64,000 nt of DNA from an uncultured bacterium (GTDB taxonomy: Bacteria > Armatimonadota > Hebobacteria > CAYNSX01), in contig CAYNSX010000004.1 of NCBI GenBank assembly GCA_964400165.1, positions 5,380 to 69,379 of the forward strand, written 5' to 3'. This document shows positions 1 to 55,700 of the stretch, in pieces (the first letter of the stretch is position 1; every line of letters starts with the position of its first letter). The notes under the pieces were generated by a model that made no database searches, was not told where the DNA came from, and saw only the letters and a list, made by a program, of their open reading frames with translations. The translations under genes and the position numbers were made by a program.

Positions 1-2585
1 GCCAACTCGGGCCGCCCGCCGCCGCCGCCGCCCGCCACTGCCGCGACGCCGCGGATGAGGGTGCCGGCGTGGACGCCGCGCTTGACCAGGTCGGGCGACA
101 CGCCGCTGGCGAAGAGGACGCTGCCGTCGGTGACGCTCGCCAGCACCACGACCCCCGACCCGACCGCGCGGGTCAGTTCGTCGGCGACCATGCGCAGCGC
201 CTCGGCGCTGACGGACGGCACCCGCCCCGCCACGACGCGCACGCCGTTCACTTGCGCGGCGTTGTCAATCAGACCCCGTGCCGCCAGCGCCGCCGCCTTC
301 GCTTCGGCGGCGAGCGCGGCGCGCTCGCTTTCGGTCAGTTGCGCTTGCAGATGCGCGACGCGTTCCGGCACTTCCTCCGGTGGCGCAGCCAGCTGCGCGG
401 CCACCAATCGCTCACGGCCCGCTCGCGCAAGTTGATAGCGCACCGCGGCGAGTCCGGTCAGCGCCTCGACGCGCCGCAGGCCGGAGCCGATGCCGCTCTC
501 GCCGGTGAAAACGAACTCGCCGATCTGGCCGCTGGCGGTGCAGTGCGTGCCGCCGCAGAGTTCCTTCGAGACCCCACCGACGGCAATCATCCGCACCGTG
601 TCGCCGTACTTCTCGCCGAAGAGCGCCATCGCGCCCTTGGCGATGGCCTCGCGGTAGGGCAGCAAAGTCACGGTGACCGGATGGTCGGCGATGATTTGCT
701 CGCTGATCATCAGCGTGAGTTCGTCGAGTTCGTCGGGCGTCACGCCGTGGAAGTGCGAGAAGTCGAAGCGCAGCCGGTCGTTGTCCACCAGCGAGCCCGC
801 CTGCGCGACATGTACGCCGAGCTTCGTGCGCAGCGCCCAGTGCAGCAGGTGCGTCGCCGTGTGCGCGCGCATCAGCCCGCGCCGCCGGTCGGCGTCGACG
901 ACCGCTCGCGTGTCCTGCCCAACGCGGAGGGTGCCGGTTTCAATCTTGGCGCGGTGGACGGTCACACCATCGAGTGGGTGCTGCGTATCGGTGACCTTTG
1001 CGATCACCCCATCCGCCTGCAACACGCCGGTGTCGCCAATCTGGCCGCCCGACTCGCCGTAGTACGGCGAGTGGTCGAGGACGACCTCGACTTCCTCGCC
1101 CGCAGTCGCCTCCTGAACCGCCGCGCCCTCCTTTAGCAAACCGATGACTTTGCCGGCGCCTTCGGTCGCGTCGTAGCCGAGGAACTCCGTCTTGCCAACG
1201 AAGGGCGCGTAAGTCTTGGCGTCCGCGTACTTGAAGACCTTGGCGGCGTGCGCCTTCGCCCGCTGCCGCTGTTCTTGCATCGCCGCCTCGAATCCGGGCC
1301 GGTCCGGCGTCAATCCCCGCTCTTCAACGATTTCTTGCGTCAGTTCGACCGGGAAGCCGTAGGTGTCGTACAACTGAAACACAACCGCGCCTGGAAACAC
1401 GCTTTGCTTCGTCGCGCTAACTTCTGCGATGCTCTTTTCCAACAACTGCGTGCCCTGATCGAGCGTGCTCTGGAAGCGTTTCTCTTCTTCATGCAGCAGG
1501 CGCTCGGCGAACTCGCGGCGCTCACGCACATTCTGGTAATCCGCGAAGCCGCCGTAGTGCTCCGCAATCACTGCCGGATAGCGGTGCAGGAACGGCTCCT
1601 TGATGCCCAGCAGCGTGCCGAAGCGATAGGCGCGGCGAATGAGGCGCCGCAACGCATAGCCGCGGCCCTCGTTGGTCGGGATAACGCCATCGGCGAGCAG
1701 GAAAGTGACCGCTCGGGCGTGGTCGGCGATGACGCGGAACGCCCGCCGCGCCTTCGGGTCTACATCCACATCGGCGCTCGACTTCGCCGCCTTCAGCAGA
1801 TCACGCGTGAGGTCGTTGATCGGCGCGAAGAGGTCGGTGTCGAACACGCTCGGCACCCGCTGCATCACCAGCGCCAGCCGCTCCAAGCCCATGCCGGTGT
1901 CGATGCCGCGGCGCGCAAGCGGATTGTCCACGCCGTCGGGGTCGCGGTCGAACTGCGGGAAGACCAGATTCCAGAACTCGAAGAACCGCCCGCACGGCGA
2001 CCCGTCGGGCCGGGTGTTCTCGCACTCCGGCTTGCAGTCGGGCTTCCCGCAGCCGAATTCCGGCCCCAGGTCATAGTTGATTTCCGAACACGGCCCGCAC
2101 GGCCCCGTTGCGCCCACCGGCCCCCACCAATTGCTCTCGACCTTCACGATGCGCTCGGCGCGGATGCTGGTCAGCGTCATCCAGAGTTTCGCCGCCTCGT
2201 CGTCGCTCGGGTGGATGGTCACCCAGAACGGCGCCGGGTCGATGCGCATCCGCTCGACGAGGAACTCCCAAGCGAACTCGATGGCCTCGCGCTTGAAATA
2301 GTCGCCGAACGAGAAGTTGCCCAGCATCTCGAAGAACGACAGGTGGCGCGGCGTCAGGCCGACTGTCTCCAGGTCACCCGCCCGGGCGCACTTCTGCACG
2401 GTGGTCAGCCGCGGGGCGGGCGGGTCGGCGTCGCCCTTCCAAAAGGGGACGAACTGCTGCATGCCGGCGCTGGTGAAGAGCGTCGTCGGGTCGCTCGGAA
2501 TCAGCGACGAGCCGGGGCGCCGGAGATGGCCTTTCTCCTCAAAGAAGGCGAGGAAGATGTCGCGCAGTTCGTGGCCGGTTGGCAT
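1..2585 (-). CDS. alaS: alanine--tRNA ligase, partial (C-terminal end beyond window start)
   Basis: Minus-strand translation from the ATG at ~2583-2585 reads MPTGHELRDIFLAFFEEKGHLRRPGSSLIPSDPTTLFTSAGMQQFVP..., the canonical AlaRS N-terminus. The frame stays open to position 1 and ends in a Gly-rich C-Ala-like tail. It is absent from the ORF track because no stop codon lies inside the window. Confidence 0.9.
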   Translation of the reverse strand, partial: MPTGHELRDIFLAFFEEKGHLRRPGSSLIPSDPTTLFTSAGMQQFVPFWKGDADPPAPRLTTVQKCARAGDLETVGLTPRHLSFFEMLGNFSFGDYFKREAIEFAWEFLVERMRIDPAPFWVTIHPSDDEAAKLWMTLTSIRAERIVKVESNWWGPVGATGPCGPCSEINYDLGPEFGCGKPDCKPECENTRPDGSPCGRFFEFWNLVFPQFDRDPDGVDNPLARRGIDTGMGLERLALVMQRVPSVFDTDLFAPINDLTRDLLKAAKSSADVDVDPKARRAFRVIADHARAVTFLLADGVIPTNEGRGYALRRLIRRAYRFGTLLGIKEPFLHRYPAVIAEHYGGFADYQNVRERREFAERLLHEEEKRFQSTLDQGTQLLEKSIAEVSATKQSVFPGAVVFQLYDTYGFPVELTQEIVEERGLTPDRPGFEAAMQEQRQRAKAHAAKVFKYADAKTYAPFVGKTEFLGYDATEGAGKVIGLLKEGAAVQEATAGEEVEVVLDHSPYYGESGGQIGDTGVLQADGVIAKVTDTQHPLDGVTVHRAKIETGTLRVGQDTRAVVDADRRRGLMRAHTATHLLHWALRTKLGVHVAQAGSLVDNDRLRFDFSHFHGVTPDELDELTLMISEQIIADHPVTVTLLPYREAIAKGAMALFGEKYGDTVRMIAVGGVSKELCGGTHCTASGQIGEFVFTGESGIGSGLRRVEALTGLAAVRYQLARAGRERLVAAQLAAPPEEVPERVAHLQAQLTESERAALAAEAKAAALAARGLIDNAAQVNGVRVVAGRVPSVSAEALRMVADELTRAVGSGVVVLASVTDGSVLFASGVSPDLVKRGVHAGTLIRGVAAVAGGGGGGRPEL

Positions 2586-2648
2586 GATAGGGTGTCGTGT
2601 GCCCGCGCCATCTTACCGCGAACGCCGCCAAGCGTTCCTCTTCGCCTT

Positions 2649-2662
2649 CCCCGCGCGCGGGG
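2649..2662. promoter_or_regulatory. perfect 14-bp palindrome CCCCGCGCGCGGGG in the alaS/EamA divergent intergenic region
   Basis: Seen directly in the sequence, about 70 nt upstream of the alaS start. In E. coli, AlaRS autoregulates by binding a palindrome at its own promoter; an analogous role here is only an inference. Confidence 0.25.
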
Positions 2663-2851
2663 AGGGACGGAGGGTGGGGTTCGTGAATCGCCTCCGCCGA
2701 TGCGTCCGAATGAAATCGGCGTGAGTCGGCTGTTTCGCGCCGCGGCCGTTTCGCGCCCGGGGCTAAACCTTTCGGCTTCGCTCAAGACAAGCCCCCGGGC
2801 TCACGACCCCGAGCACACAGCGGGGCTTAAGCCCCGCCGGGTTTCGCCGTC

Positions 2852-3790
2852 ATGAGCCCGGCCGTTCAGGGCCGGGCGTCGTCGCGCCGGGCCTACGCCT
2901 CCCTCTGGATCGCCACGCTCGTCTGGGGCGCGTCGTTCCCGGTGGCGCGGTATTTGTTGCAGCCCGGCGCCGACGGGCAGGCGGCGATCTCGCCGTTGGT
3001 GCTCGCCGCGCTGCGGTTCAGCATCGCGTCGGCGCTGATGCTGATCCCGGCGGCGCGGGCGCTGCGGCGCACGCCGCTCGGCCGCGCCGACTGGTGGCAC
3101 TTGGTGCTGCTCGGGCAGGTCGGCGTCTCGATCTATTTCTGGCTGCAATATGTCGGCGTCCAGAAGACGAATGCGGGCATCTCGTCCATCGTCATCCTCG
3201 GGCTGATTCCCGTCTTCACAGCGGTCGCCGCCTGGCTGCTGCGCTACGAGCGGTTTTCGTGGATGCAGGTCGTCGCGCTCGGCATCGGCATCGGCGGCGT
3301 CTGGGTGCTGGGGCAATCGCAGAACGGCGCGGTCGCTTGGCGCGGCAACGACATGACCATCGGCCTCGTCGCGCTCGTCGCCAACGCGGCCTGCTTCGCC
3401 ATCTATGCGCTGCTGGCGCGGCGGCTGGTGCAACGCGTGCCGACGCTGACGGTGACCGCGGTGTCGATGACGAGCGGCGCGCTGGCGCTGCTGTTGGTCA
3501 CGCTCGCCAACCCCGGCGCGTGGAACGCCGTCGCGCGCTTGCACACCGGACACTGGCTGGCGGTGTTCTATCTGGCGCTGGTCTGTTCGGTGGCGGCGTA
3601 TTACCTCTTCAACTTCGCGCTCACCGTCGTGCCCGCGAGCCGCGCCGCGTTCCTGGCGCTGTTCGAGCCGGTGGTCGCCGTCGCGCTCGGCTCGGCCTTC
3701 CTCGGCGAGCGGCTGACGCTGCTGATGCTAGGCGGCGCGGCGCTGATTGCGCTCTCGGTGGCGTTGGTGCTAAGGCGGGGAAGTGCGTAG
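2852..3790 (+). CDS. EamA/DMT-family drug/metabolite transporter
   Basis: 312 aa with about 10 predicted TM helices and two EamA-like halves (..LWIATLVWGASFPVARYLL.. / ..AVFYLALVCSVAAYYLFNFAL..). It is the track ORF in the correct frame. Confidence 0.7.
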   Translation: MSPAVQGRASSRRAYASLWIATLVWGASFPVARYLLQPGADGQAAISPLVLAALRFSIASALMLIPAARALRRTPLGRADWWHLVLLGQVGVSIYFWLQYVGVQKTNAGISSIVILGLIPVFTAVAAWLLRYERFSWMQVVALGIGIGGVWVLGQSQNGAVAWRGNDMTIGLVALVANAACFAIYALLARRLVQRVPTLTVTAVSMTSGALALLLVTLANPGAWNAVARLHTGHWLAVFYLALVCSVAAYYLFNFALTVVPASRAAFLALFEPVVAVALGSAFLGERLTLLMLGGAALIALSVALVLRRGSA

Positions 3791-3798
3791 CGCCCTCT

Positions 3799-3819
3799 CC
3801 CGGCCCTATAAGGGCCGGG
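3799..3819 (+). terminator. GC hairpin CCCGGCCC-tataa-GGGCCGGG immediately after the EamA stop
   Basis: 8-bp perfect stem with a 5-nt loop, 9 nt after the TAG at 3788-3790. No U-tract follows, which is common in high-GC genomes. Confidence 0.45.
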
Positions 3820-3928
3820 CTCACAAAGCCCGCCCCATGAATGGGACGAACAAATCAATCGTAGGGGGCCGGCGCTACCGAAAATCGTCGCCGCAAGAAT
3901 GCGGCTCCTACAAGAATCCCTCTTTCCT

Positions 3929-3958
3929 CGTTTCCTTGTGACCTGCCGCTGTCTGCTA
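3929..3958 (+). promoter_or_regulatory. candidate sigma70-type promoter for secG (TTGTGA -N15- TATACT)
   Basis: The -10 TATACT ends about 13 nt before the secG ATG at 3972; the -35-like TTGTGA lies 15 nt upstream. Spacing is slightly short, so confidence is low. Confidence 0.3.
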
Positions 3959-3971
3959 TACTTTTGCTCCC

Positions 3972-4220
3972 ATGTGGTTCCTCCAGACCATCCAAGTGCT
4001 CATCTCGCTGTTGCTGATCTTTCTCATTCTGGCGCAGACGACGCGCGCCGAGGGCGGCGGCGGGCTGCTGGGCATGGGCACCATCGGCGGCCAGGCCCGC
4101 GCCGCGTTCAAGACCCGCTCCGGCTTCGAGGAGCACATCGGGCGCATCACGGCCTGGGTGGCGTCGGTGTGGCTTGTCGTCTCGGCGATCCTCTCGGTCC
4201 TCTTCCTCGCCCGCGGGTAG
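3972..4220 (+). CDS. secG: preprotein translocase subunit SecG
   Basis: 82 aa: MWFLQTIQVLISLLLIFLILAQTTRAEGGGGLLGMGTIGGQARAAFKTRSGFEEHIGRITAWVASVWLVVSAILSVLFLARG. Two TM helices flank a Gly-rich loop, the SecG signature. Confidence 0.8.
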   Translation: MWFLQTIQVLISLLLIFLILAQTTRAEGGGGLLGMGTIGGQARAAFKTRSGFEEHIGRITAWVASVWLVVSAILSVLFLARG

Positions 4221-4259: not shown

Positions 4260-4345
4260 GCCCAGGTGGCGAAATGGTAGACGCGCTAGCTTGAGGGGCT
4301 AGTGGGCGCAAGCCCGTGGGAGTTCAAATCTCCCCCTGGGCACCA
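4260..4345 (+). tRNA. tRNA-Leu (anticodon GAG)
   Basis: Folded by hand: acceptor GCCCAGG/CCTGGGC, D arm GCGA-AATGGTAG-ACGC, anticodon stem CTAGC/GCTAG with loop TTGAGGG (anticodon GAG), a long variable arm GGGCGCAAGCCCGT as expected for type II tRNA-Leu, T arm GGGAG-TTCAAAT-CTCCC, discriminator A, then an encoded CCA. Confidence 0.85.
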
Positions 4346-4357
4346 GCACTGACCAGT

Positions 4358-4451
4358 GACCAGGAAGGCGGGGAGGCGGTGACCAGTGTGTCATGACGAC
4401 GCGTGATTGCGCCGTTCCTGCTTCCCTGCCTCCCCGCCTCCCCGGTTCCTG
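4358..4451. repeat. family-A palindromic repeat element (GACCAGGAAGGCGGGGAGGCGG ... CCGCCTCCCCGGTTCCTG hairpin)
   Basis: Inverted-repeat arms of about 22-30 nt flank a ~35-nt loop. Closely related copies sit at 14498-14570 and 16245-16312, and a half copy at 5905-5948. Confidence 0.5.
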
Positions 4452-4606: not shown

Positions 4607-5812
4607 ATGACGCCGGACGACGGACAACCGAGCGGCGTGTCCGAGGGATTCGGCGCCGCACCGTCCAATGCCGCAACCGCGCGAGCGCGTTCTGCCGCAG
4701 CGCGCGGAACCGTGCGGACCGACAGCGCGGCCGCGCTCGACTCCGACACGGTGTGGCTCCTCTACCAGGCCGCGAAGTCGCTGGGCGGCACCTTCGAATT
4801 GGAACGCATCAGTGAACTCGCCGGCGCATTGCTCAATCACGCCGCGTCGGGCACGCTCACCACGATCTTTCTGCTGAACCCGGCGCGCAACATAGCGCTG
4901 GCGCCGCTGTGCACCGTCCCGGCGCGCGCCGCCACGACCTCGCCGGTGCCTTTGAGCCGCGGCGACCTCGATGCGCTGGTGGCGCTCGGCGCCCCGCTGC
5001 TGCTGCGCGGCGCCGAGGACGACCGCGCGTTCGAGTTCCTGTTCCGCGGCACCGCCTTCCGGCCGCCGGCGCTGCTCGTCCCGCTGTATGCGGACGCGTC
5101 GCTCGTCGGCGTGGCGTTGGTGGCCCTAGCCCCCGGCCACGCGGCGGTGAACGGCGAGCGCCGCGCGATCATCTCCGCGCTGGCGCGCAACATCGGCATC
5201 GCGGTGCAGAACAGTTCGTTCGTGAAGAACCTGGAAGATTTGTACCTGGGCACCATCCGCGCGCTCTCCAGCGCGCTGGGGCACGAGGATGACTATGCGC
5301 GCGGCCACGCCGACCGCGTCGCGGGCTATTGCCAGGAACTGTGTGACCGGCTGGGCGTGCCGGAAGTCGAGCGCAAGGCGCTGCTCGCCGCCGCCCACCT
5401 CGCCCAGATTGGCAAGGCGAAACTGCCCGAGTCGATCCGCCACAAGCGCGGCGGGCTGACCACCGAAGAGGTGCAGCAAGTGCGGCAGTACCCCGTCATC
5501 GGCGCCGAGTTCGTCGGCGACCTGGCGCTGCCCTGGGATGTGCAGGCGCTGGTGCGGCATCACCACGAACACTACGACGGCGGCGGCTATCCCGACCGGC
5601 TGGTGGGGGCTGCCATCCCGCGCGGCTCACGCATTCTCGGCATCGTAGACGCCTATTGCGCGATGGTGGCCGACCGCCCCTATCGCGTCCGGCTGACCCG
5701 CGCCGAGGCGATGGCGGAACTCCTCCGGCAGCGCGGCGCGCAGTTCGACCCCGTCATCGTCGATGTCTTCTGCCAATTGCTGGACGAAGAAGTCGCCCCG
5801 CCCCCCGCGTAG
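4607..5812 (+). CDS. GAF-domain HD-GYP phosphodiesterase (cyclic-di-GMP signalling)
   Basis: The C-terminal half carries the HD-GYP core ..RGHADRVAGYCQEL..HLAQIGKAKLPESI..HHHEHYDGGGYPDRL..IVDAYCAMVADRPYR. The N-terminal ~200 aa are GAF-like. Confidence 0.75.
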   Translation: MTPDDGQPSGVSEGFGAAPSNAATARARSAAARGTVRTDSAAALDSDTVWLLYQAAKSLGGTFELERISELAGALLNHAASGTLTTIFLLNPARNIALAPLCTVPARAATTSPVPLSRGDLDALVALGAPLLLRGAEDDRAFEFLFRGTAFRPPALLVPLYADASLVGVALVALAPGHAAVNGERRAIISALARNIGIAVQNSSFVKNLEDLYLGTIRALSSALGHEDDYARGHADRVAGYCQELCDRLGVPEVERKALLAAAHLAQIGKAKLPESIRHKRGGLTTEEVQQVRQYPVIGAEFVGDLALPWDVQALVRHHHEHYDGGGYPDRLVGAAIPRGSRILGIVDAYCAMVADRPYRVRLTRAEAMAELLRQRGAQFDPVIVDVFCQLLDEEVAPPPA

Positions 5813-5904
5813 TCCTCTGACGCTCCGCCAATCCACCTCACCCCGCCCTTCGGGCATCCCTCCCCGTCTCACGGAGAGGGGCCAGAGATGAAATCGTTCG
5901 GTTG

Positions 5905-5948
5905 TCCTCCTCCCCGCCTTCCTGCCTCCCTGCCTCCCCCGTTCCCCA
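5905..5948. repeat. half copy (C/T-rich arm only) of the family-A repeat
   Basis: CCTCCTCCCCGCCTTCCTGCCTCCCTGCCTCCCCCGTTCCCC matches the right arm of the 4.4 kb, 14.5 kb and 16.3 kb copies. No matching G-rich left arm lies nearby. Confidence 0.35.
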
Positions 5949-6098
5949 AGGTGTGGGGCCGCGGCCGTCACCGCCCCGTGACACGCCGCGGCCCACGATG
6001 CAATTTGTCAGTGCTCTCCGCCGGCCGGACCCGCGGATCGCTGCATGCGCGGGGGAGGAAAGCCGCCGCGGGCCGGCCGAGCAGAGAGATCACACTGG

Positions 6099-7449: not shown

Positions 7450-7745
7450 GGCTTCTCCATCAACCTGAAAAGCAAAACGCCCGCCGTGGTCCGAAGACCA
7501 CAGGCAGGCGTCGAGACCTGCACACTATTGTTGGGCCGGGTCGGCCCGATCAGGGTGCTCTAGTTCTCCATCGGTGTGCGGGGCGGCGACACGCCATGCC
7601 ATCCTGCAACATGCGTGTCACCCGCAGACCACACCAGCGGCTTTTTCCCCATCCGATGCACATTTTGAGAGGGGGTTTCTCCCGGCTGCGCTAGAATGGG
7701 AAAACAGGGCGACAGCCCGCCCCATACTGCCCTGTGCAATCCCAC

Positions 7746-8591
7746 ATGGCCACCGAGACGGACACCGTGACCACCGACCTGGCGCGCCTGGCCTCGACTG
7801 CCCGGCAGCTGCGCCGCGACATCATCCGGTGCACCACCGCCGCCGGCTCCGGGCATCCGAGCAGTTCGCTCTCGATGGTGGAACTGCTGACGGCGCTGTA
7901 CTTCGGCGGCGTGATGCGCTACGACCCGCACAACCCCCTCTGGCCCGACCGCGACCGCTTCATCCTCTCGAAAGGGCACGGCTGCCCGGGCTTGTACTCG
8001 GCGCTGGCCGAGGCGGGCTACTTCCCGCGCGAGTGGCTGCTGAAACTGCGCGACATCGACTGGCCGCTCGAAGGCCACCCGAAGCGCCACCCGGAACTCG
8101 GCATCGAAGCGGCGACCGGCTCGCTCGGGCAGGGCCTGTCGATCGCCATCGGGCACGCCCTCGCCTGCCGGCTCGACGGACGCGACGCGCGCGTCTACTG
8201 CATGCTCGGCGACGGCGAGTGTCAGGAGGGCCAAGTGTGGGAAGCGGCGATGGCGGCGACGCACTTCCACCTCGACTCGCTGACCGCCATCGTGGACCAC
8301 AACAAGTATCAGCAGACCGGCGCCGTCTTCACCACGATGGACTACCGCCCCTTCGCCGAGAAATGGCGTGCCTTCGGCTGGCACACCGACGAGATTGACG
8401 GCCACGACCAGCAAGAAGTGCTCGACGCCTTCGAGCGCGCCCGCGGCGTCTCCGGCCACCCGCAGGTCATCATCGCCCACACCATCAAGGGCAAAGGTGT
8501 GTCGCTGATGGAAACTGATTTCACTTGGCATGGAAGAGCATTGAGCGCGGAGCAGGCAGAGGTAGCATTGAAGGAAATCGGAGAAGACTGA
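7746..8591 (+). CDS. tkt: transketolase, N-terminal (TPP pyrophosphate-binding) subunit of a split transketolase
   Basis: ..CTTAAGSGHPSSSLSMVELLTALYFGGVMRYDPHNPLWPDRDRFILSKGHGCPGLYSALAEAGYF.. is the transketolase N-terminal section. It starts at the ATG 12 nt inside the track ORF (which begins at a GTG). Confidence 0.85.
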   Translation: MATETDTVTTDLARLASTARQLRRDIIRCTTAAGSGHPSSSLSMVELLTALYFGGVMRYDPHNPLWPDRDRFILSKGHGCPGLYSALAEAGYFPREWLLKLRDIDWPLEGHPKRHPELGIEAATGSLGQGLSIAIGHALACRLDGRDARVYCMLGDGECQEGQVWEAAMAATHFHLDSLTAIVDHNKYQQTGAVFTTMDYRPFAEKWRAFGWHTDEIDGHDQQEVLDAFERARGVSGHPQVIIAHTIKGKGVSLMETDFTWHGRALSAEQAEVALKEIGED

Positions 8592-8596
8592 ACTTG

Positions 8597-8626
8597 CAGG
8601 AAACAAGGAAACAAGGAAACGAGGGT
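8597..8626. repeat. left inverted repeat (GGAAACAAGGAAACAAGGAAACGAGG) flanking the four-helix-bundle gene
   Basis: Its reverse complement, CCTCGTTTCCTCGTTTCCTCG, recurs at 9103-9131 as an imperfect inverted repeat. Confidence 0.5.
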
Positions 8627-8638
8627 CGGCTGACCTTC

Positions 8639-9094
8639 GTGGACGAGGCCTTGCCGGGTTTCAAGAATCTGGTGGCCTGGCAGAGAGCAAGGCGTCTGGC
8701 CGCCCTGGTTGACGAGTTTGCGAAGGGATTTCCCCGCTTGGAAGGAGTTCTACGATCGCAGATGCGGCGCACCGCGATTTCAGTCGGCGCCAACATTGCC
8801 GAGGGTTACTGTCGCGGCGCGATCGGCGATTACATCCGCTACTGCGAAATCGCGCGCGGGTCTCTCGGCGAGCTCGGGAATCACCTCGCGCACGCGGAAG
8901 ACATCGGACTCGCGACACAGTGTCCGTGGTATCCCAAACTGCTCGACGCCTATAGCGAGACACTCGCGGTCCTCAACGGTTTAGTCGCCGCGCTGAAGCG
9001 TAAGAGAGATACCGGGGAATGGGATCGGTCCTTCGCCGTGCGTGAATTCGCCGCGCCGTACATCGGCACCCAAATCGAGGAATCATCGTCATGA
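8639..9094 (+). CDS. four-helix-bundle protein (TIGR02436-like, 23S rRNA intervening-sequence protein family)
   Basis: ..NLVAWQRARRLAALVDEFAKGFPRLEGVLRSQMRRTAISVGANIAEGYCRGAIGDYIRYCEIARGSLGELGNHLAHAE.. matches the conserved core of this family. The start is taken as the in-frame GTG just after the tkt-N stop; it is uncertain. Confidence 0.6.
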   Translation: MDEALPGFKNLVAWQRARRLAALVDEFAKGFPRLEGVLRSQMRRTAISVGANIAEGYCRGAIGDYIRYCEIARGSLGELGNHLAHAEDIGLATQCPWYPKLLDAYSETLAVLNGLVAALKRKRDTGEWDRSFAVREFAAPYIGTQIEESSS

Positions 9095-9102
9095 ACTCGA
9101 CC

Positions 9103-9131
9103 CAATCCTTGTTTCCTCGTTTCCTCGTTTC
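9103..9131. repeat. right inverted repeat (CCTTGTTTCCTCGTTTCCTCGTTTCCTCG)
   Basis: Partner of the repeat at 8597-8626. A shorter related motif, CCTCGTTTCCTTG, also occurs at about 3918-3930. Confidence 0.5.
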
Positions 9132-9149
9132 CTCGCCGTTGGATTTGCA

Positions 9150-10097
9150 ATGATGTCGCGCCCTCTTGGAAAGGCAACCAGAGACGGCTTCGGCGAAGCC
9201 CTCCGCGACCTCGGTGCGGTGGATGCCTCGTTCATCGTCCTCGACGGCGATGTAAACAATTCCACCCGCACCGAATACTTCGCCTCTAAGTACCCCGACC
9301 GGTTCTTCAATGTCGGCATCGCCGAGTCGAACCTGGTCGGCGTCGCGTCGGGCATCGCCTCGAACGGACGCACCACCTGGCTGGCCAGTTTCGCCGCCTT
9401 CCTGATGTGCAACGCCTTCGACCAATTGCGGATGTCGGTCGCGGTGCCCGGCCTGCCGGTCAAGTGCGTCGGCAGTCACGCCGGCATTTCCATCGGCGAA
9501 GACGGCCCCTCGCAGATGGCCATCGAAGATGTCGCGCTCGCCTGCGCGCTGCCCGGCTTCACCGTCGTCGTGCCCGCCGATGAATACACCGCCCGCGCCG
9601 CCGTCCCCGCGCTGCACCGGATGGACGGTCCGTGCTACCTGCGGGTCGGGCGCCCGAAAGTGCCCGTCGTCTACAGCAACGGCTCGGCGCTCTTTGAAAT
9701 CGGTCGCGCCAATCGCTTGCGCGAGGGCGGCGATGTGACGATTGTCGCCAACGGGTTGCTAGTCGCCCCGGCGCTCGACGCCGCCGACACCCTCGCCGGC
9801 GAGGGTGTCGAAGCCCGTGTGCTCGACATGCACACCGTCCGCCCGCTCGACGCTGAAGCGCTCCTGGCGGCGGCGAACGAGACCCGCGGCCTTGTCGTCG
9901 CCGAAGAGCACCTCATCGAGGGCGGGCTCGGCAGCCGCATCGCCGTCCTGCTCGCGCAACAGCGACCCTGCCCGATGCGGTTCGTCGGCCTGACCCGTTA
10001 CGCGGAATCGGGCAAGTCGGAAGCGCTGCTCGAGAAATACCACCTGACCGCGTCCGACATCGCCGCCGCCGCCCGCGACCTGCTGCGCGCGCGCTAG
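9150..10097 (+). CDS. tkt: transketolase, C-terminal (pyrimidine-binding plus C-terminal domain) subunit
   Basis: MMSRPLGKATRDGFGEALRDLGAVDASFIVLDGDVNNSTRTEYFASKYPDRFFNVGIAESNLVGVASGIA..GSHAGISIGEDGPSQMAIEDVALACALPGFTVVVPAD.. The start is the ATGATG 108 nt inside the track ORF. Confidence 0.85.
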   Translation: MMSRPLGKATRDGFGEALRDLGAVDASFIVLDGDVNNSTRTEYFASKYPDRFFNVGIAESNLVGVASGIASNGRTTWLASFAAFLMCNAFDQLRMSVAVPGLPVKCVGSHAGISIGEDGPSQMAIEDVALACALPGFTVVVPADEYTARAAVPALHRMDGPCYLRVGRPKVPVVYSNGSALFEIGRANRLREGGDVTIVANGLLVAPALDAADTLAGEGVEARVLDMHTVRPLDAEALLAAANETRGLVVAEEHLIEGGLGSRIAVLLAQQRPCPMRFVGLTRYAESGKSEALLEKYHLTASDIAAAARDLLRAR

Positions 10098-10120
10098 GCG
10101 CCTGGCCTGACCCGTCGCCG

Positions 10121-12802
10121 ATGAGCCATCCCGCCTCGGCCCGCTGGATCGTCTGCAAGTTCGGCGGCACCAGCGTCGCCACGCGCGCTCGCTGGGACAC
10201 GATCGTCGCCATTGCACGCGAGCGCCTCGCCGAAGGGCTGCGCCCGGTCCTGGTGTGTTCCGCGCTCGACGGCGTCTCGGACGACCTCGAGCGCTGCGTC
10301 GAGGAGGCCGTTCGCGGCAAGCAGCAACCAATCCTGGACGCCATCGCCGCGACGCACTACGCGCTCGGCGACGCCCTCGGCCTCAATGCGGACACATTGC
10401 TCCGTGCCGACTTCGAGGTGCTGACCGGTCTTCTCGCGGCCATTGCGGAGGCGAAAGAGATCACTCCGGCTCGCCACGCCCGCGTCCTGGCGACGGGGGA
10501 ACTCCTCGCCACCCGCCTCGGCGCCGCGTTCTGCAACGCCTCCAGCCTGCCGACCGCCTGGGTGGACGCGCGCTCCTGCCTCGTGTCCACCGACGAGCAG
10601 CATGTCGGCGAGACGCGGCGCATGCTCTCCGCCGTCTGCGCCGCGGAACCGGACCCGGCTCTCGCCGCGCAATTCGCGGCGCTGCCCGAATCGGTCCTTG
10701 TGACGCAGGGGTTCATCGCCCGCTTGGCCGGCGGTGACACGGTCTGCCTGGGGCGCGGCGGCTCCGACACTTCGGCGGCGATCTTCGCCGCCCGGCTGGG
10801 CGCCGTCCACTGTGAAATCTGGACCGATGTGCCTGGGATGTTTTCCGCGGACCCGCGGCAGGTGCCCGCGGCGCGGCTGCTCCGGGCGCTCGACTACGAC
10901 GAGGCCCAGGAGATTGCGACGACCGGCGCCAAAGTGCTGCACCCGCGGTGCATCGCGCCGCTGCGCCAGCACCGCATCCCCCTCCACATCCGCTGGATCG
11001 AGCGACCGGAGTGGGCCGGAACCGTGGTGTCGGGTGACCCGGGCGAAGCCGGCCCGCAAATCAAGGCGATCTCCGCCAAAGGCGACATCACGCTCATCGC
11101 GATGGACACGCCCGGCATGTGGCAGCAGGTCGGTTTCCTCGCCGACACTTTCGCCGTCTTCCAGCGGCACGGCCTCTCGATTGACCTCGTGTCCACTTCC
11201 GAAATGAATGTCACCGTCTCGCTCGACCCGGGCGCCAACCTGCTCGACCCCGGCGCGCTGCATGCGCTGCTGGAAGACCTCCGCCCGCTGTGCACTCCGC
11301 GGACCATCGGCCCCTGTGCCGCGGTCAGTCTGATCGGGCGTAACATCCGAGGGCTGCTGCACGAACTGGGGCCCGCGCTCGAATTGTTCGGGGAGCACCG
11401 CATTCATCTCGTCTCGCAAGCGGCCAGCGACCTCAATTTTACCGTCGTCGTCGACGCCGGCCAGGCGGAGCCGCTCGTCCGGCAGCTGCACGCGCTCTTC
11501 TTCGAGGACCGGGCGGATGATGCGCTCCTCGGCCCGAGTTGGCGCAGTCTGTTTGCAGGCGGCGATGCGCCCGCAGCCACGGATGAAGTGACGGGCCCGA
11601 CGGTGTGGTGGCGCCAGCGGCGCGACGAATTGCTGGCCCTGGCGCGCGCCGCTGCGCCGCTCTATGTGAACGATGCCGCGTCGCTCGACGCCGCGGCCGC
11701 CCGCCTGCAGCGGCTCGCCGCCGTCGACCGCGTGTTCTACGCGCTCAAGGCCAACTCCCACCCCACGATCCTCGAGCGCTTCGCCGCCGCGGGGCTGGGG
11801 TTCGAATGCGTCTCGCCGGGCGAGATCGCCCGGGTCTTGCACACGGTCCCCAGGATCGATCGGCAGCGTATTCTCTTCACGCCGAACTTCGCCCCGCGCC
11901 ACGAATACGCCGACGCGTTCGCCGCCGGCGTGATGGTGACGCTCGACAACGCCTACCCGCTCGAGCGCTGGCCCGATATCTTCCGCGGCAGGGCGGTGTT
12001 CCTCCGCCTCGACCCGGGCCGCGGGCGTGGACACCATGCCTATGTCCGCACCGCCGGCGCGCAGTCGAAATTCGGCATCGCGGAGTTGCAACTCGACGAC
12101 CTCGCGGCGCGCCTCCGTGCATTGGATGTCCGGGTCATCGGCCTGCACGCGCATATCGGCAGCGGCATTCGTGACGCCGGCAGTTGGCTGGAAACGGCCG
12201 AGTTTCTGGCACGGAACGCAGCAAGATTCCCGGAAGTGACCGCGCTCGACCTCGGCGGCGGCCTCGGCGTCCCCGAACAGCCCGGTCAGGTGCCGCTCGA
12301 CTTGGCGGCGTTCGACGCGTCGTTGCAGCAGTTCAAGGCCGCGCACCCGCAGTTCGAACTGTGGCTGGAACCGGGGCGCTTCCTGGTCGCTGAAGCGGGC
12401 GTGCTCCTGGCGCGTGTGACGCAGGTTAAGCGCAAAGGCGACATCACCTTTGTCGGCATCGAGACCGGGATGAACTCACTCATTCGCCCGGCGCTCTACG
12501 GGGCGCACCACGAGATTGTGAACCTGACCCGCCTCGACGAACCGCCCGACCTGACGGCGAACATCGTCGGGCCGATTTGCGAATCCGCCGATGTCCTAGG
12601 CGCCGGCCGCCATCTGCCACCGACAGAGGAGGGCGATGTCTTGCTAATCGCCACCGCCGGCGCCTACGGCGCCGCCATGTCCTCGCACTACAACTTGCGC
12701 GAACCCGCCGCCGAAGTCATGTTGCCGCCGGCTACAACCGCGCCGCGGCGCACCAATTCGCGGAAAGGGCGCCCAGCGAAACAGCCGAGGCCCGCGCCGT
12801 GA
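10121..12802 (+). CDS. lysAC: bifunctional aspartate kinase / diaminopimelate decarboxylase (LysC-LysA fusion)
   Basis: The N-terminal ~450 aa are aspartokinase (..IVCKFGGTSVATRARWDTIVAI..VLVCSALDGVSDDL.. plus ACT-like region). The C-terminal ~430 aa are a PLP-dependent DAP decarboxylase (..PLYVNDAASLDAAAARLQ..VFYALKANSHPTILERFAAAGLGFECVSPGEIARV..). Confidence 0.8.
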   Translation: MSHPASARWIVCKFGGTSVATRARWDTIVAIARERLAEGLRPVLVCSALDGVSDDLERCVEEAVRGKQQPILDAIAATHYALGDALGLNADTLLRADFEVLTGLLAAIAEAKEITPARHARVLATGELLATRLGAAFCNASSLPTAWVDARSCLVSTDEQHVGETRRMLSAVCAAEPDPALAAQFAALPESVLVTQGFIARLAGGDTVCLGRGGSDTSAAIFAARLGAVHCEIWTDVPGMFSADPRQVPAARLLRALDYDEAQEIATTGAKVLHPRCIAPLRQHRIPLHIRWIERPEWAGTVVSGDPGEAGPQIKAISAKGDITLIAMDTPGMWQQVGFLADTFAVFQRHGLSIDLVSTSEMNVTVSLDPGANLLDPGALHALLEDLRPLCTPRTIGPCAAVSLIGRNIRGLLHELGPALELFGEHRIHLVSQAASDLNFTVVVDAGQAEPLVRQLHALFFEDRADDALLGPSWRSLFAGGDAPAATDEVTGPTVWWRQRRDELLALARAAAPLYVNDAASLDAAAARLQRLAAVDRVFYALKANSHPTILERFAAAGLGFECVSPGEIARVLHTVPRIDRQRILFTPNFAPRHEYADAFAAGVMVTLDNAYPLERWPDIFRGRAVFLRLDPGRGRGHHAYVRTAGAQSKFGIAELQLDDLAARLRALDVRVIGLHAHIGSGIRDAGSWLETAEFLARNAARFPEVTALDLGGGLGVPEQPGQVPLDLAAFDASLQQFKAAHPQFELWLEPGRFLVAEAGVLLARVTQVKRKGDITFVGIETGMNSLIRPALYGAHHEIVNLTRLDEPPDLTANIVGPICESADVLGAGRHLPPTEEGDVLLIATAGAYGAAMSSHYNLREPAAEVMLPPATTAPRRTNSRKGRPAKQPRPAP

Positions 12803-14486: not shown

Positions 14487-14497
14487 CAACCAAAGGG

Positions 14498-14570
14498 ACC
14501 AGGGAGGCGGGGAGGCGGGGAGGCAGTGGAGCATTGACTGCGTTCCCGCCTCCCTGCCTCCCTGCTTACC
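14498..14570. repeat. family-A palindromic repeat element between convergent genes
   Basis: GACCAGGGAGGCGGGGAGGCGGGGAGGCAG ... CGTTCCCGCCTCCCTGCCTCCCTGCTTACC. Confidence 0.5.
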
Positions 14571-16244: not shown

Positions 16245-16312
16245 GACCAGGAAGGCGGGAACGCAGGGAGGCAGTGACTGCCTTCCTGCCTTCCCGCCTC
16301 CCCGGTTCCTAG
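16245..16312. repeat. family-A palindromic repeat element abutting the stop codon of the peroxiredoxin gene
   Basis: GACCAGGAAGGCGGGAACGCAGGGAGGCAGTG-ACTGCCTTCCTGCCTTCCCGCCTCCCCGGTTCCTAG is a near-perfect palindrome. The TAG stop of the upstream gene lies at its edge. Confidence 0.5.
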
Positions 16313-26823: not shown

Positions 26824-26865
26824 ACGGGTGTCGGGTGTCGGGTGTCGGGTGTGGGGTGTCGGGAA
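26824..26865. repeat. (GGGTGTC)x5 heptamer tandem repeat followed by CTAACTA-type repeats
   Basis: ACGGGTGTCGGGTGTCGGGTGTCGGGTGTGGGGTGTCGGG contains six GGG runs with 4-nt spacers, so it has G-quadruplex potential. It lies in the intergenic region between convergent genes. Confidence 0.6.
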
Positions 26866-26938
26866 ACGAAGAGTGCGGGTGACGGGCCGGACAGACCGCA
26901 GTTCCTACTAACTACTAACAACTAACGCTTTCTCTGCC

Positions 26939-52705: not shown

Positions 52706-55700
52706 TCAGAGGGGCAGTTGCGCCGCCCGCGTAATGAAAACTGCCATTTGGGCGCGGGTAACGATGTTCGCCGGCTTATATGTGCCGTCCGGGAATCCGG
52801 CTGTAATGCCCTTGCTGACGATGTATTCGATGAACTTGTAGGACGGGTGCGCGCACGAGACATCCGAGAAGCGCTCGCTGCCGCACGCTGGGGGAGTGAA
52901 AGCAGCAAGGTCGAGGTCGGCCAGGTCGCGCACGCGCGCAAGGAACACTGCCATCGCGCCGCGGCTGACGAAGTTGCCCGGTTTGTAGGTGCCATCCGGA
53001 AAGCCCGCGGCAATCCCCTTGCTGACAATGTACTCGATGAATTTGTAGGACGGGTGAGTGCACGAGAGATCGGAGAAGGTCTCACTGGCGCACGCTGGCG
53101 GCGCGAAAGAAGCGAAGTCGCCAAGCGTCAAATTTGCTGCCCGCGCCATGAAGACCGCCATCGCGCTGCGACTGACCATGCTGTCGGGGTGAAAGGAGCC
53201 GTCAGGGAACCCAGAAGCGATGGCGGCACGCGATACGGCTTCAATGAATTGGAATGCCCAGTAGCCGCAGGGGACATCGGAGAAGGAGTCGGCAGTTTGC
53301 TTCACAGCGTAGGAGACCGTGTCTTCCGAGGTCAGGCCACCCCAATCGGTGACGCGCAGCCGCACCGTGGTGACGCCAAGCGGCAACTCTATGACCTTGC
53401 GCTCGCCTTGCTCGTCAACGGTACCATCGTTTCCGAAATCCCACTCGAAGAAGGCAATGTTGTCGTTCGTGTGGGGCAGCGAGTCGAAGTCGGACGACCG
53501 CGTCCCATCGAGGAGTATTGTGCCAGCGGTCGCCTGGCAGCCGACGACGGTCGTCACATCGGGGCCGGCATCCGCTATCGGCTGCCGGTTCCCGCCCACC
53601 GCGACGAAGACCTCGCGTTGCAGCGCAGAATCGCGACCGAATCCGTTCGACACAGTGATCAGGGCCTCGCCGGAGTCAACAGCGGTGACAAGGCCGTCCG
53701 AAGTCACGGTGGCCACGGTCGGATCGGAAGTGGCAAACGACGTGCCGGTCGTCGTATCTGTCAGGTCGCGCCATAGCTGATCATTGAAGAGGCCCGTCAC
53801 TTGGAGCGGTTGGCTCTCTCCCATGTTTGCAAAGCGGATCGCGTCGGGCTGCACGACCAGATCAGCAAGGATCGCGTTTGGCATAGCGGTGACTGTGACC
53901 GCGGGGGAAGTGACCAGCGAACCATCTGCCAGCTGCCCCGCGGCCGAGATGGTGATGGGGCCGGAAGCGTTCGCCGATACCTGGTATGAAACAGTCCACG
54001 GGCTGCTCCCGGCCGGGTCGAGGACGACCGTGTCGTCGACTCCGAGCACGACCAGGCTTTGAGGCGCGATCCCATTGTCAGCGACGACCGTTACACTCAC
54101 GCTGCTGCCGCTTTCGACTTGCGTCCCCCCCAATGGGGCCGTGATATGCAATTGCCCATGCGAGGAGGGCCGCAACCTCGACGTGCCGGACACTGCACGC
54201 GGGGCCGCGCTCAACCTGGATAGGGCTGATGGTGCTGGTGGGAATGCGAAGGTCGCGGTATAGCTCGGGGTGTTGAGCAGCGCAAGAACGCGATCCCGGT
54301 ACACCGGGCTCGTTGTGTTCGCGGGGTGATTGAAGTCGCAGCCCTGAAACACATCGTACGCTCCGGACGGAAGCCCTCCCCGCTGGCTGTATGCGGACAC
54401 GATCCCATCGCTCGATGCACCTGAGAACACCGTATCCCATACCCCACACGCCGTATCCACGCCGCCGGCAGCGCATAGTGACCAGGTCTTAATGGCAAAG
54501 GAAAAGAAAACCCTCGCGTCAATGGAAAGACAGAACAACGCTTCACAGCCAAATCCGGCGTGCCCAATGAGCGCGTGAGTGGGGATTCCAGTCGCGCCCA
54601 TGTCCAAAATAGCCCGATTGCCAGGGACAAGGTCGTTCACTGCGCCCTGGTCGATTGGCAATCCTGCCTGGGCCATCAGCCAAGTCAGATATTCGCCGCA
54701 TAGCAAATGATTATCACGCATGTCGACGAGAGCGAGGGCGAGTCCTGACCCGAAGTGAGGGGTGTCAAGCGTAATGAGCTTGTGAACATCGCCCTGCATG
54801 AGGTTATCTCGGCGCCGGTATTCGGGCTGGTTGAAATACACCCGCGTCAGGACGCCGCCCATACTGTGTCCCACAATATCGGCGCCCATGACAGCGACTC
54901 CCGGGCGCCGCAGCTTGAACAGCGCAATTGCTTGAGCCACCGCGGTTCTCGGGACCAGAGCATTGGCAGCGAAGGAGAGCGCACTGCCTCGAGTGGAGGG
55001 ATCGTTGTCGGAATCCCCGTCGTAGTCCGCGATCCACATCACGAATCGGGAATCTTGTATGAATGATGTAAAGAACGGTGCCTGACCTTGAGACCAAGTG
55101 TCCGCGTTGGACCAGACACCATGGAGCAGTACCACCGGAGGGCGGTGAATTTCGATGGATGTGTCCGGAAGCGTTTGTGCAGAGCCTCCCGCCGGATAGA
55201 AAGTCGCGTGCAACACGACACTGCGGGTGGCGCGAAATGCGTCGCCGGGCGCGCTCATGCGCACGAAGTCGGCCGGCGCCCGGTAATAGGCAAAGGCGAA
55301 TTTCCCCCGCGAGGTGTTCACCACCGGCACTGTCAGCGCCAGTCGTGGGTCGGAGCGATTGGCGAAGTACAGGCCGCCGCCCTCGTTAGTGTTCGCCTCA
55401 TTCTGGACTGCAAAAGCCACCGTCCCGTCGGCGGTAGCCGGCAAGCGCAAGAGCACTGTCGCTTGACCGTCCGCCGCGACGCCACGTCGCGGGCCGCCGC
55501 CGACGGCTAACACCTCGGCGGCAGTGACGGTATTGCCGGTGCTGCCAACGAACTCCGGCCAGGCGTCGAGCCGCTGGACGGGTCCGCGAACTGCGCGATT
55601 CGGACCGGTCGTGAATGCTACCGTGGCGTAGTTGGAATAGCCGACCGGGTAGTCGTAGTACAAGGCAGTGCCCGTCACGAACACGGTCGCCCCATCGGGG

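Follow-up and report, generated by a model that had tools for sequence, protein, structure and literature searches.

Transketolase is encoded by two adjacent genes, tktN and tktC, in the uncultured bacterium of the Armatimonadota considered here, and the spacer between them holds a gene for a four-helix-bundle (FHB) protein, bracketed by two short tandem-repeat arrays that face each other as an inverted pair. The window, meaning the whole stretch of DNA that was analysed, comprises 64,000 nucleotides of contig CAYNSX010000004.1 (positions 5,380 to 69,379; assembly GCA_964400165.1). The spacer measures 558 bp, and its immediate neighbours besides tktN and tktC are a sigma-54 activator gene and a long biosynthetic gene. 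A first-pass annotation, made from the letters of the window, had described a cassette of about 560 bp composed of a repeat, an FHB open reading frame (ORF), and the reverse-complement repeat; this description was accurate (Table 1), as was its placement of the right repeat in the leader of tktC, where the right arm stops about 13 nt before the start codon. That start is ATG 9150 or ATG 9153, set by alignment to relatives that begin MSRPLG.

Table 1. Features of the tktN–tktC region, with positions numbered from the first letter of the window.
Feature	Position	Strand	Remarks
tktN	7734..8591	+	Upstream host gene; transketolase N-terminal, thiamine pyrophosphate-binding subunit; Transketolase_N PF00456, E 4.9e-48
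Whole cassette	8592..9149	+	Missing from the tktN/tktC junction of the closest relatives
FHB gene	8594..9094	+	23S rRNA intervening sequence (IVS) protein family; 166 aa from TTG 8594; alternative GTG 8639 gives 151 aa
Left arm	8598..8624	+	Purine-rich tandem array (AGGAAACA) x3.4; Tandem Repeats Finder (TRF) period 8, 94% matches; predicted stem strand 8596-8630
Right arm	9106..9135	+	Pyrimidine-rich tandem array (TCCTCGTT) x3.8; TRF period 8, 95% matches; predicted stem strand 9100-9137
tktC	9150..10097	+	Downstream host gene; transketolase C-terminal subunit; Transket_pyr PF02779, 1e-38; Transketolase_C PF02780, 2.2e-27

The unit of the right arm is the reverse complement of the left-arm unit. 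The two arms form an inverted repeat of 32 nt at 84% complementarity, or of 19-20 nt at 95% in two registers; in the repeat analysis the left arm fell into family D3 and the right arm into family D1, both within inverted repeats I1-I3. With up to two mismatches allowed, GGAAACRAGGAAAC occurred six times in the window against 0.5 expected, a count reached in none of 100 shuffles, and four of the six occurrences are the arms themselves. To compare this locus with others, we scored the complementarity of the 170 nt before a gene with the 170 nt after it; the window locus scored 18 (z = 9.1 against shuffles). The two predicted stem strands were paired in both the minimum free energy and the centroid folds, so that the termini of the cassette are predicted to close a long stem around the gene. 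Rfam returned no match in 7500-10300, and none at E <= 1 in the cassette.

The encoded protein matched PF05635 (E 1.1e-21; 77.5 bits, cut-off 33.8), TIGR02436 (80.1 bits, cut-off 24), and Protein Data Bank (PDB) entry 2GSC (E 2e-11). Its AlphaFold model (pLDDT 90.8) has four helices, at residues 12-29, 33-59, 62-88, and 98-125, and superposes on XCC0516 (2GSC) with a target-normalised TM-score of 0.90 and a root-mean-square deviation of 1.2. More distant matches were obtained to BT_0352, to 2RLD, to Avd (4DWL), and to the ribonucleoprotein of a diversity-generating retroelement (8UB7); the predicted fold is that of a four-helix bundle like XCC0516, BT_0352, and Avd. The published motif of the family, GxxRxxxSxxxNxxE followed by ARGSxxE (PMC3936711), is present as GVLRSQMRRTAISVGANIAEG and IARGSLGELG, and S48, N52-E55, and A72-S75 were invariant in our alignment of the family (A1). 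Within the family, the protein falls in an Anaerolineae-type subfamily, whose members conserve a C-terminal extension (G-WDRS-V+E---Y). By tblastn, no second FHB gene was found in the window.

The start of the FHB gene requires a correction, as it most likely lies at TTG 8594 and not downstream of the left array. The closest homologues all share two residues of an N-terminal G-x-x-T, G11 and T14, whose codons lie upstream of the alternative GTG, which argues for the earlier start. The Joint Genome Institute (JGI) gene call on a 99.5%-identical contig (L001) uses the same start, and TTG 8594 lies 2 nt past the tktN stop and 10 nt past a GGAG (8580-8583). With translation beginning there, the left array would itself be read, as QETRKQGNEG, and thus probably forms part of the N-terminus of the protein.

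Evidence for insertion comes from the two nearest relatives, L082 (78% TktN identity) and L084 (69%), in which tktN and tktC overlap by 4 nt (ATGA) with zero insert and without any hairpin at the junction; L082 also has the same sigma-54 activator gene upstream. The ends of the host proteins can be aligned across the site. The C-terminus of TktN, ...KEIGED*, corresponds to ...AEIGA* and ...EEIG* in relatives, and the N-terminus of TktC, (M)MSRPLGKATRDGFGEALRDLGAVD, to MSRPLGRATRDGFGEALRDLGAVD in L082, such that ...EIGA*/MSRPLG... in L082 stands opposite ...EIGED*, the cassette, and MMSRPLG... in the window. By this comparison, the insertion landed in the junction of an already split and translationally coupled pair, and tktC here has lost its ancestral overlap with tktN. 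The composition of the cassette differs from that of its surroundings, with a GC content of 0.59 against 0.66 for the window and a third-position GC content (GC3) of 0.70 against 0.87 in tktN and 0.85 in tktC.

The empty sites also bear on a suggestion of the first-pass annotation, that the cassette may itself have split a single transketolase gene, and on its proposal to look for split genes without the cassette in relatives. Such genes were found in both L082 and L084; since relatives without the cassette already have separate tktN and tktC, the cassette did not divide them. Apart from the position between the two halves, nothing favours a split by insertion, and the best 120 TktN homologues listed were all of N-subunit size (270-338 aa), the nearest named ones belonging to Fervidibacterota, Anaerolineae/Chloroflexota, and Armatimonadota. 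We regard that origin as extremely improbable. Nor was the same gene order found in these relatives minus the repeat flanks alone: what they lack is the whole cassette. The repeats are likewise not unique to the locus, as arrays of the same unit occur elsewhere.

Several familiar kinds of element were considered for the cassette and rejected. An insertion sequence or miniature inverted-repeat transposable element does not fit, as the FHB gene is the sole ORF, with no transposase and no convincing target-site duplication. The arrays are not CRISPR arrays, in which repeats of 23-50 nt alternate with unique spacers of comparable length; the units here are 8 nt long and run head to tail without spacers. 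A diversity-generating retroelement was rejected on finding no reverse transcriptase among the ORFs within about 2 kb, template and variable repeats not having been searched for.

To place the locus in a wider context, we assembled 80 loci with FHB relatives, one genome per species, from Planctomycetota, Cyanobacteria, Alphaproteobacteria, Bacteroidota, Chloroflexota, Acidobacteriota, the Candidate Phyla Radiation (CPR), and others; 76 of these were usable for flank scoring, with a threshold of >=13. An inverted repeat at or above this threshold flanked the gene in 58 of the 76 loci, compared with 7 of 304 non-cognate flank pairs and 1 of 66 windows displaced by 500 nt. A repeat period of 7 was found in 42 loci and one of 8 in a further 8 loci. 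Units varied by locus (GGGAATA, GGGGAGTA, AGGCAAT, AGGCACT, AGTGAGT, AGTAAAT, and others) around a loose consensus, GG[C/G]ANTA, with an information content of 4.9 bits against 3.55 +/- 0.19 for shuffled units. Three examples from the closest, Anaerolineae-type subfamily were bracketed as well, by units of about 10 nt. The purine-rich arm came first, giving a convergent pair, in 57 of the 58 loci. We considered reading a polarity from the purine arm that precedes the gene, and discarded the idea: purine-first order reads identically on both strands and so is uninformative on gene orientation, even though it is a real property of the pairs.

None of the 80 loci lay in an rRNA gene. By crude ORF calls, 43 of 72 FHB loci had co-directional ORFs on both sides, tens of nucleotides away, and the confirmed flanking pairs are partners in conserved operons, to which tktN|tktC adds one more case: pheS|pheT, atpA|atpG, nuoC|nuoD (twice), gmk|nadD, groES|groEL, prkA|DUF444, two adjacent ABC-transporter ATPase genes of the branched-chain amino-acid type, and an ABC permease pair. 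Other flanking pairs were histidine kinase|response regulator, alcohol dehydrogenase|alcohol dehydrogenase, and aldo-keto reductase|phosphoesterase. In many loci the left arm begins a few nucleotides past the upstream stop codon, the arms lie within a few nucleotides of the ORF, and the right arm stops immediately short of the Shine-Dalgarno sequence that serves the downstream gene. The tktN–tktC cassette is one member of a large class that spans phyla and occupies the spacers of conserved operons, and the repeat-bracketed architecture is a property of the FHB gene family rather than of this locus alone. With empty sites in the same neighbourhood in relatives, lower GC3, and the same build round most FHB genes, the first-pass view of an insertional cassette of the 23S-IVS type holds up well, and we are highly confident that the tktN–tktC spacer contains an insertion that belongs to this class.

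Some individual loci had further peculiarities. In L095/L096 (about 2233-2500), GGGAGCTCGT arrays form a complete hairpin upstream of the FHB gene, with no gene in its loop of about 110 nt, and a third GGGAGCTCGT array lies downstream of the gene, making a compound arrangement. Right-arm arrays in L061 and L076 are partly masked as N in the genome collection, and arrays of the cassette unit exceed 100 nt there; very long arrays may break or bias assemblies. A cyanobacterial contig (L065) carries a group I intron at 5726-6015 (Rfam RF00028, 90 bits), about 2.3 kb downstream of its FHB cassette and probably unrelated to it.

A cassette at the groES|groEL spacer is shared by five Phycisphaerales genomes, which allowed the fate of arms and gene to be followed at one site. 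The units were AGGCATC, AGGCACT, GGGGATT/AGGCATT, and GGGCAAT, and each right arm fits its own left arm; in the consensus stem of the five loci (RNAalifold), 14 of 30 pairs had changed on both sides. The two arms therefore co-evolve, staying complementary. The dN/dS of the FHB gene (0.17-0.37) indicates purifying selection on the cargo protein. Between two of the genomes, L003 and L015, nucleotide identity was 91-99% across groES, groEL, and dnaJ but only 56-67% across the groES|groEL cassette, and dS was 0.26 for groES, 0.23 for groEL, and 0.26 for dnaJ as compared with 1.79 for the FHB gene. Being so much more diverged than its flanks, the whole arm-gene-arm unit must be a replacement, or the product of two separate acquisitions, at this one site, and whole cassettes are thus exchangeable at a given site between close relatives.

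Purifying selection, long inheritance at groES|groEL in the Phycisphaerales, and the exact placement of cassettes between partner genes that need balanced expression might be taken to mean that the cassette serves its host. The stem would then act in processing or stability, or as a phase-variable repeat, to tune the ratio of tktN to tktC, with the FHB protein as a domesticated regulator. We find this decidedly unlikely, as close relatives do well without the cassette and keep the tighter ATGA coupling, the same type of cassette sits in unrelated operons and phyla, its composition is foreign-like, and cassettes are swapped.

The FHB gene is not the only cargo. Downstream of groEL in L003 (2650-3135), a 127-aa GxxExxY gene (TIGR04256, E 1e-42; PDDEXK_3) is bracketed by CACAGAGG / CTCTGTG arrays, and four further GxxExxY loci (L219, L220, L222, and L223) have the same bracket with the same unit, three of them at groEL|dnaJ and one elsewhere. 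All five, mostly at the groEL|dnaJ site of Phycisphaerales (four loci), have an ORF of 125-130 aa between CACAGAGG arms. Within this one clade the units are cargo-specific: FHB arms are AGGCANT, whereas GxxExxY arms are CACAGAGG in 5 of 5 loci. Where L003 and others have the GxxExxY cassette at groEL|dnaJ, L015 has a gene-less hairpin of AGGCACT arrays. The GxxExxY cassettes are like those of FHB in build, with an ORF enclosed by inverted tandem arrays, and unlike them in the unit and in the protein, which has an unrelated fold; GxxExxY belongs to the PD-(D/E)XK nuclease superfamily (PMC3424549).

On the reverse strand of the metagenomic contig L132 (about 2210-3060), an inverted (GGAAACRA)n pair made of (GGAAACAA/GTAGACAA)n arrays encloses two ORFs, one of them nucleotidyltransferase-like (MLFRIDALRNVDAFLEAHGVPYAVIGG...); judged by eye, this cargo may be a toxin-antitoxin-type or nucleotidyltransferase pair. 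Contigs L102 and L132 share CATACACAGGAGA past the right arm, where it serves as the source of a Shine-Dalgarno sequence for the downstream gene.

Arrays of this kind also occur without any gene. In the window, three intergenic hairpins with short loops (4354-4451, 14497-14566, and 16247-16306) are built of purine-rich arrays of 8-nt period, with CAGGAAGG / CGGGGAGG units and their reverse complements. The first follows a tRNA-Leu gene (4260-4345), the second lies between convergent genes, and one of the three is followed by a T-run; their units (GGGAGGCG, CAGGAAGG) are unlike those of the cassette. The first-pass annotation had proposed a search for further copies of the GGAAAC repeat beside similar genes. 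Within the window, there was a solo partial copy of the right-arm unit (CTCTTTCCTCGTTTCCTTGT) at 3920-3943, in the leader of an ORF that begins at 3973, with no FHB gene and no inverted partner found nearby. In metagenomes, (GGAAACRA)n was present on at least 120 contigs, of which 80 were kept for analysis; an inverted partner within 1.5 kb was found on 12 of the 80, and none on the other 68, so that most of these arrays are solo and unrelated to FHB. The unit alone is therefore not diagnostic of a cassette. All 12 pairs were purine-first (12 vs 0), with loops of 6-153 nt in nine and of 520-758 nt in three, and two of the three long-loop pairs (L102 and L159) enclose an FHB gene.

Other repeats were recorded in the window. 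Solo arrays are present at 5905-5940 (CCTCCCTG x3.8), at 26825-26863 (CGGGTGT x5.6, directly 3' of a gene on the + strand), and at 26905-26926 (CTACTAA x3.1, directly 3' of a convergent gene on the - strand), the latter two not being complementary to each other. At 3787-3915 lies an intergenic sequence like the repetitive extragenic palindromic (REP) elements, with internal inverted repeats (GTAGCGCCCTCTCCC ... GGGGGCCGGCGCTAC, then ...GCGGCTCCTACAAG), resembling the 'TGTAGGAGC' type of proteobacterial extragenic repeats. A 207-bp unit is repeated 2.2 times at 52724-53176 (76% identity; TRF score 504), where the GC3-based gene list has no gene.

The gene-less hairpins raise the question of which came first. 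The FHB gene could have inserted into the loop of a host heptamer or octamer hairpin already present after a gene, in which case the element would not include the arms. Hairpins of the same build in the window, the short loops in 9 of the 12 paired (GGAAACRA)n arrays, the gene-less hairpin of L015 at a site elsewhere filled by a GxxExxY cassette, and the approximately 70 convergent GGGAATC pairs of Xanthomonas (PMC4692102) are all in keeping with such an order. The empty tktN/tktC sites are free of any hairpin, however, and arms and gene were replaced together between L003 and L015; units correlate with cargo type, and in many loci the arms abut the ORF closely. A hairpin-first origin is thus unlikely.

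How the cassette probably works can be sketched as follows. No promoter-like site was detected on either strand of the cassette, and no terminator-like site on its + strand; without signals of its own, it would be transcribed with the tkt operon. The FHB protein would be translated from TTG 8594, using the GGAG just inside the end of tktN. In the transcript, the arms, about 470 nt apart, would pair to give a stem of about 35 bp, the architecture that is cut by RNase III in the 23S IVSs of Coxiella, Leptospira, and Salmonella. Cleavage would yield separate tktN, FHB, and tktC messages and, as the left arm overlaps the start of the FHB gene, would hold down FHB expression. The element, most likely selfish, would ride on the transcription of operons that the host cannot silence. 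Our best guess is that the FHB protein, a homologue of Avd, may bind the repeat arms, though our confidence in any specific role for it is low. RNA readily accommodates a loop of about 470 nt, which duplex DNA would form with difficulty, and from this we infer that a role at the RNA level is favoured. We put the probability of an IVS-type cassette, co-transcribed with tkt and with arms forming a stem of the RNase III type, at roughly 0.55.

The principal alternative is a mobile element acting on DNA, in which the arrays are terminal recognition or hairpin sites, comparable to REP elements and their REP-associated tyrosine transposases (RAYT) or to transposon ends, and the cargo protein moves or maintains them; gene-less arrays and hairpins would be its non-autonomous derivatives. 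The cargo-specific units within one clade, the nuclease superfamily to which GxxExxY belongs (PMC3424549), the solo arrays of related units and short gene-less hairpins scattered through the window and metagenomes, and the replacement of whole cassettes at one site all sit well with it, and the convergent purine-first order of paired arrays hints at a generating mechanism. Mismatches in the arms are strand-symmetric, again as a DNA element would have them. Set against this, FHB has no known catalytic fold, no target-site duplication was found, the gene-less hairpins of the window use other units than the cassette, and the arms change fast between orthologous sites, unlike typical protein-binding ends; a hairpin with a loop of 400-560 nt would also form far more easily in RNA than in duplex DNA. 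Action on DNA, which is compatible with RNA processing, is a serious possibility, though less probable than a role in RNA.

The reading of the cassette as an inserted, RNA-processed element of the IVS type is subject to several objections. The empty-site comparison relies on relatives at 78% and 69% protein identity, and the hairpin and the gene could have come separately. No convincing target-site duplication was found in the window or in 38 other inspected loci, with only a 5-nt TTGCA, compatible with chance, abutting both ends (8594-8598 and 9145-9149). The sampled FHB loci are phylogenetically non-independent, and in 18 of the 76 no clear inverted repeat flanked the gene. For 8570-9170, the total folding energy is ordinary (z = -1.58). 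Arm mismatches show no sense-strand preference for G·U (32 G·T vs 33 A·C), the mark that selection on RNA would be expected to leave, and nothing in the data separates selection on complementarity at the RNA level from selection at the DNA level. Co-transcription and RNase III cleavage are argued here by analogy with the rRNA elements, and with the ORF starting at 8594, ribosomes would compete with formation of the stem.

To our knowledge, both the IVSs of 23S rRNA, with their S23p or FHB ORFs, and the heptamer repeats such as GGGAATC and the short tandemly repeated repetitive (STRR) sequences, abundant in many bacterial genomes, have gone unexplained, the former since the early 1990s. The window locus, the 76 FHB loci, and the five GxxExxY loci connect them: the rRNA IVS has the look of an uncommon landing place for a cassette that is far more often at home in operon spacers, and arrays of the heptamer type that of the arms of this cassette. 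The feature in the window is one example of a habit of the FHB family that is widespread and apparently undescribed. We offer a more general scheme tentatively. FHB and GxxExxY cassettes may be the autonomous, gene-carrying forms of a pan-bacterial and hitherto unrecognised class of mobile elements of operon spacers, whose cargo recognises, or helps to generate, arrays of cargo-specific 7-8-nt units; bacterial heptamer repeats, including the GGGAATC of Xanthomonas, the STRR of cyanobacteria, and the hairpins of the window, would be non-autonomous relics, the 23S IVS would be the same element in rRNA, and the 'CRISPR association' of 23S_rRNA_IVP would be partly an artefact of the arrays. For annotation, the arrays are of practical concern, as they can pass for CRISPRs, can add spurious N-termini when translated, and can break assemblies.

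Our literature search, which left subscription journals mostly outside, so that an earlier description there or in database family notes is possible, found no paper on the general pattern, nor one that connects FHB or GxxExxY genes with inverted tandem-repeat arrays at their flanks. In two surveys of CRISPR, 23S_rRNA_IVP is named as one of the proteins that occur in CRISPR-Cas loci or are linked to them (PMC3936711, PMC10910872); we speculate that flanking arrays may contribute to such calls. The pairing of a small gene with inverted short repeats that are also dispersed between genes, without a gene of their own, recalls the REP elements (or REPINs) and RAYT. There, however, the cargo is an HUH (IS200/IS605-like) transposase and the repeat a palindrome of 20-40 nt, whereas the FHB protein is no such transposase, its arms are tandem arrays of 7-8 nt, and the dispersed copies in the window are of different units. 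Avd, a nucleic-acid-binding pentamer, is the accessory protein of diversity-generating retroelements. The window protein shares its fold and family, with model matches to 4DWL and 8UB7, but only about 15-18% identity, and no reverse transcriptase is found among the immediate neighbours of the cassette.

Closer parallels are provided by the heptamer repeats described as (GGGANTN)n in Xanthomonas and as GGGGA(C/T)T and STRR in Nostoc (PMC4692102), and as TAACTGA in Beggiatoaceae and cyanobacteria (PMC4679880). These too are intergenic tandem units of 7-8 nt, rich in G and A, that start just past a stop codon and, in Xanthomonas, often form convergent inverted pairs (PMC4692102). The consensus of the FHB arms matches the Xanthomonas repeat logo, and the window arms, with tandem purine-rich units of period 8 in a convergent pair, purine arm first, belong to the class. 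The two papers discuss G-quadruplexes or regulation and draw no link to FHB or GxxExxY genes; the unit in the window, lacking G-runs, cannot form a quadruplex.

The closest resemblance is to the 23S rRNA IVSs with an S23p ORF in Coxiella burnetii and Leptospira. In location the two differ, as the window cassette stands between two protein-coding genes and not in helix 45, or in helix 9 or 25, of 23S rRNA, which defines the rRNA IVS. RNase III cut the Coxiella IVS in vitro, with ends mapped by rapid amplification of cDNA ends (PMC4990558), while excision of the window cassette is proposed by analogy, and the Coxiella ORF is decaying whereas the cargo in the window is intact and conserved. In other respects they are built alike. 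The cargo belongs to the same family (PF05635/TIGR02436), the size is about 430-560 nt, and short tandem repeats directly precede the ORF, as three GACAGAT heptamers before the S23p start in Coxiella (PMC4990558) and as 3.4 octamers of AGGAAACA in the window. Each lies within a transcription unit and has no signals of its own, and both have terminal inverted repeats that form, or are predicted to form, a stem of about 28-35 bp, that of Coxiella being 28 bp long (PMC4990558).

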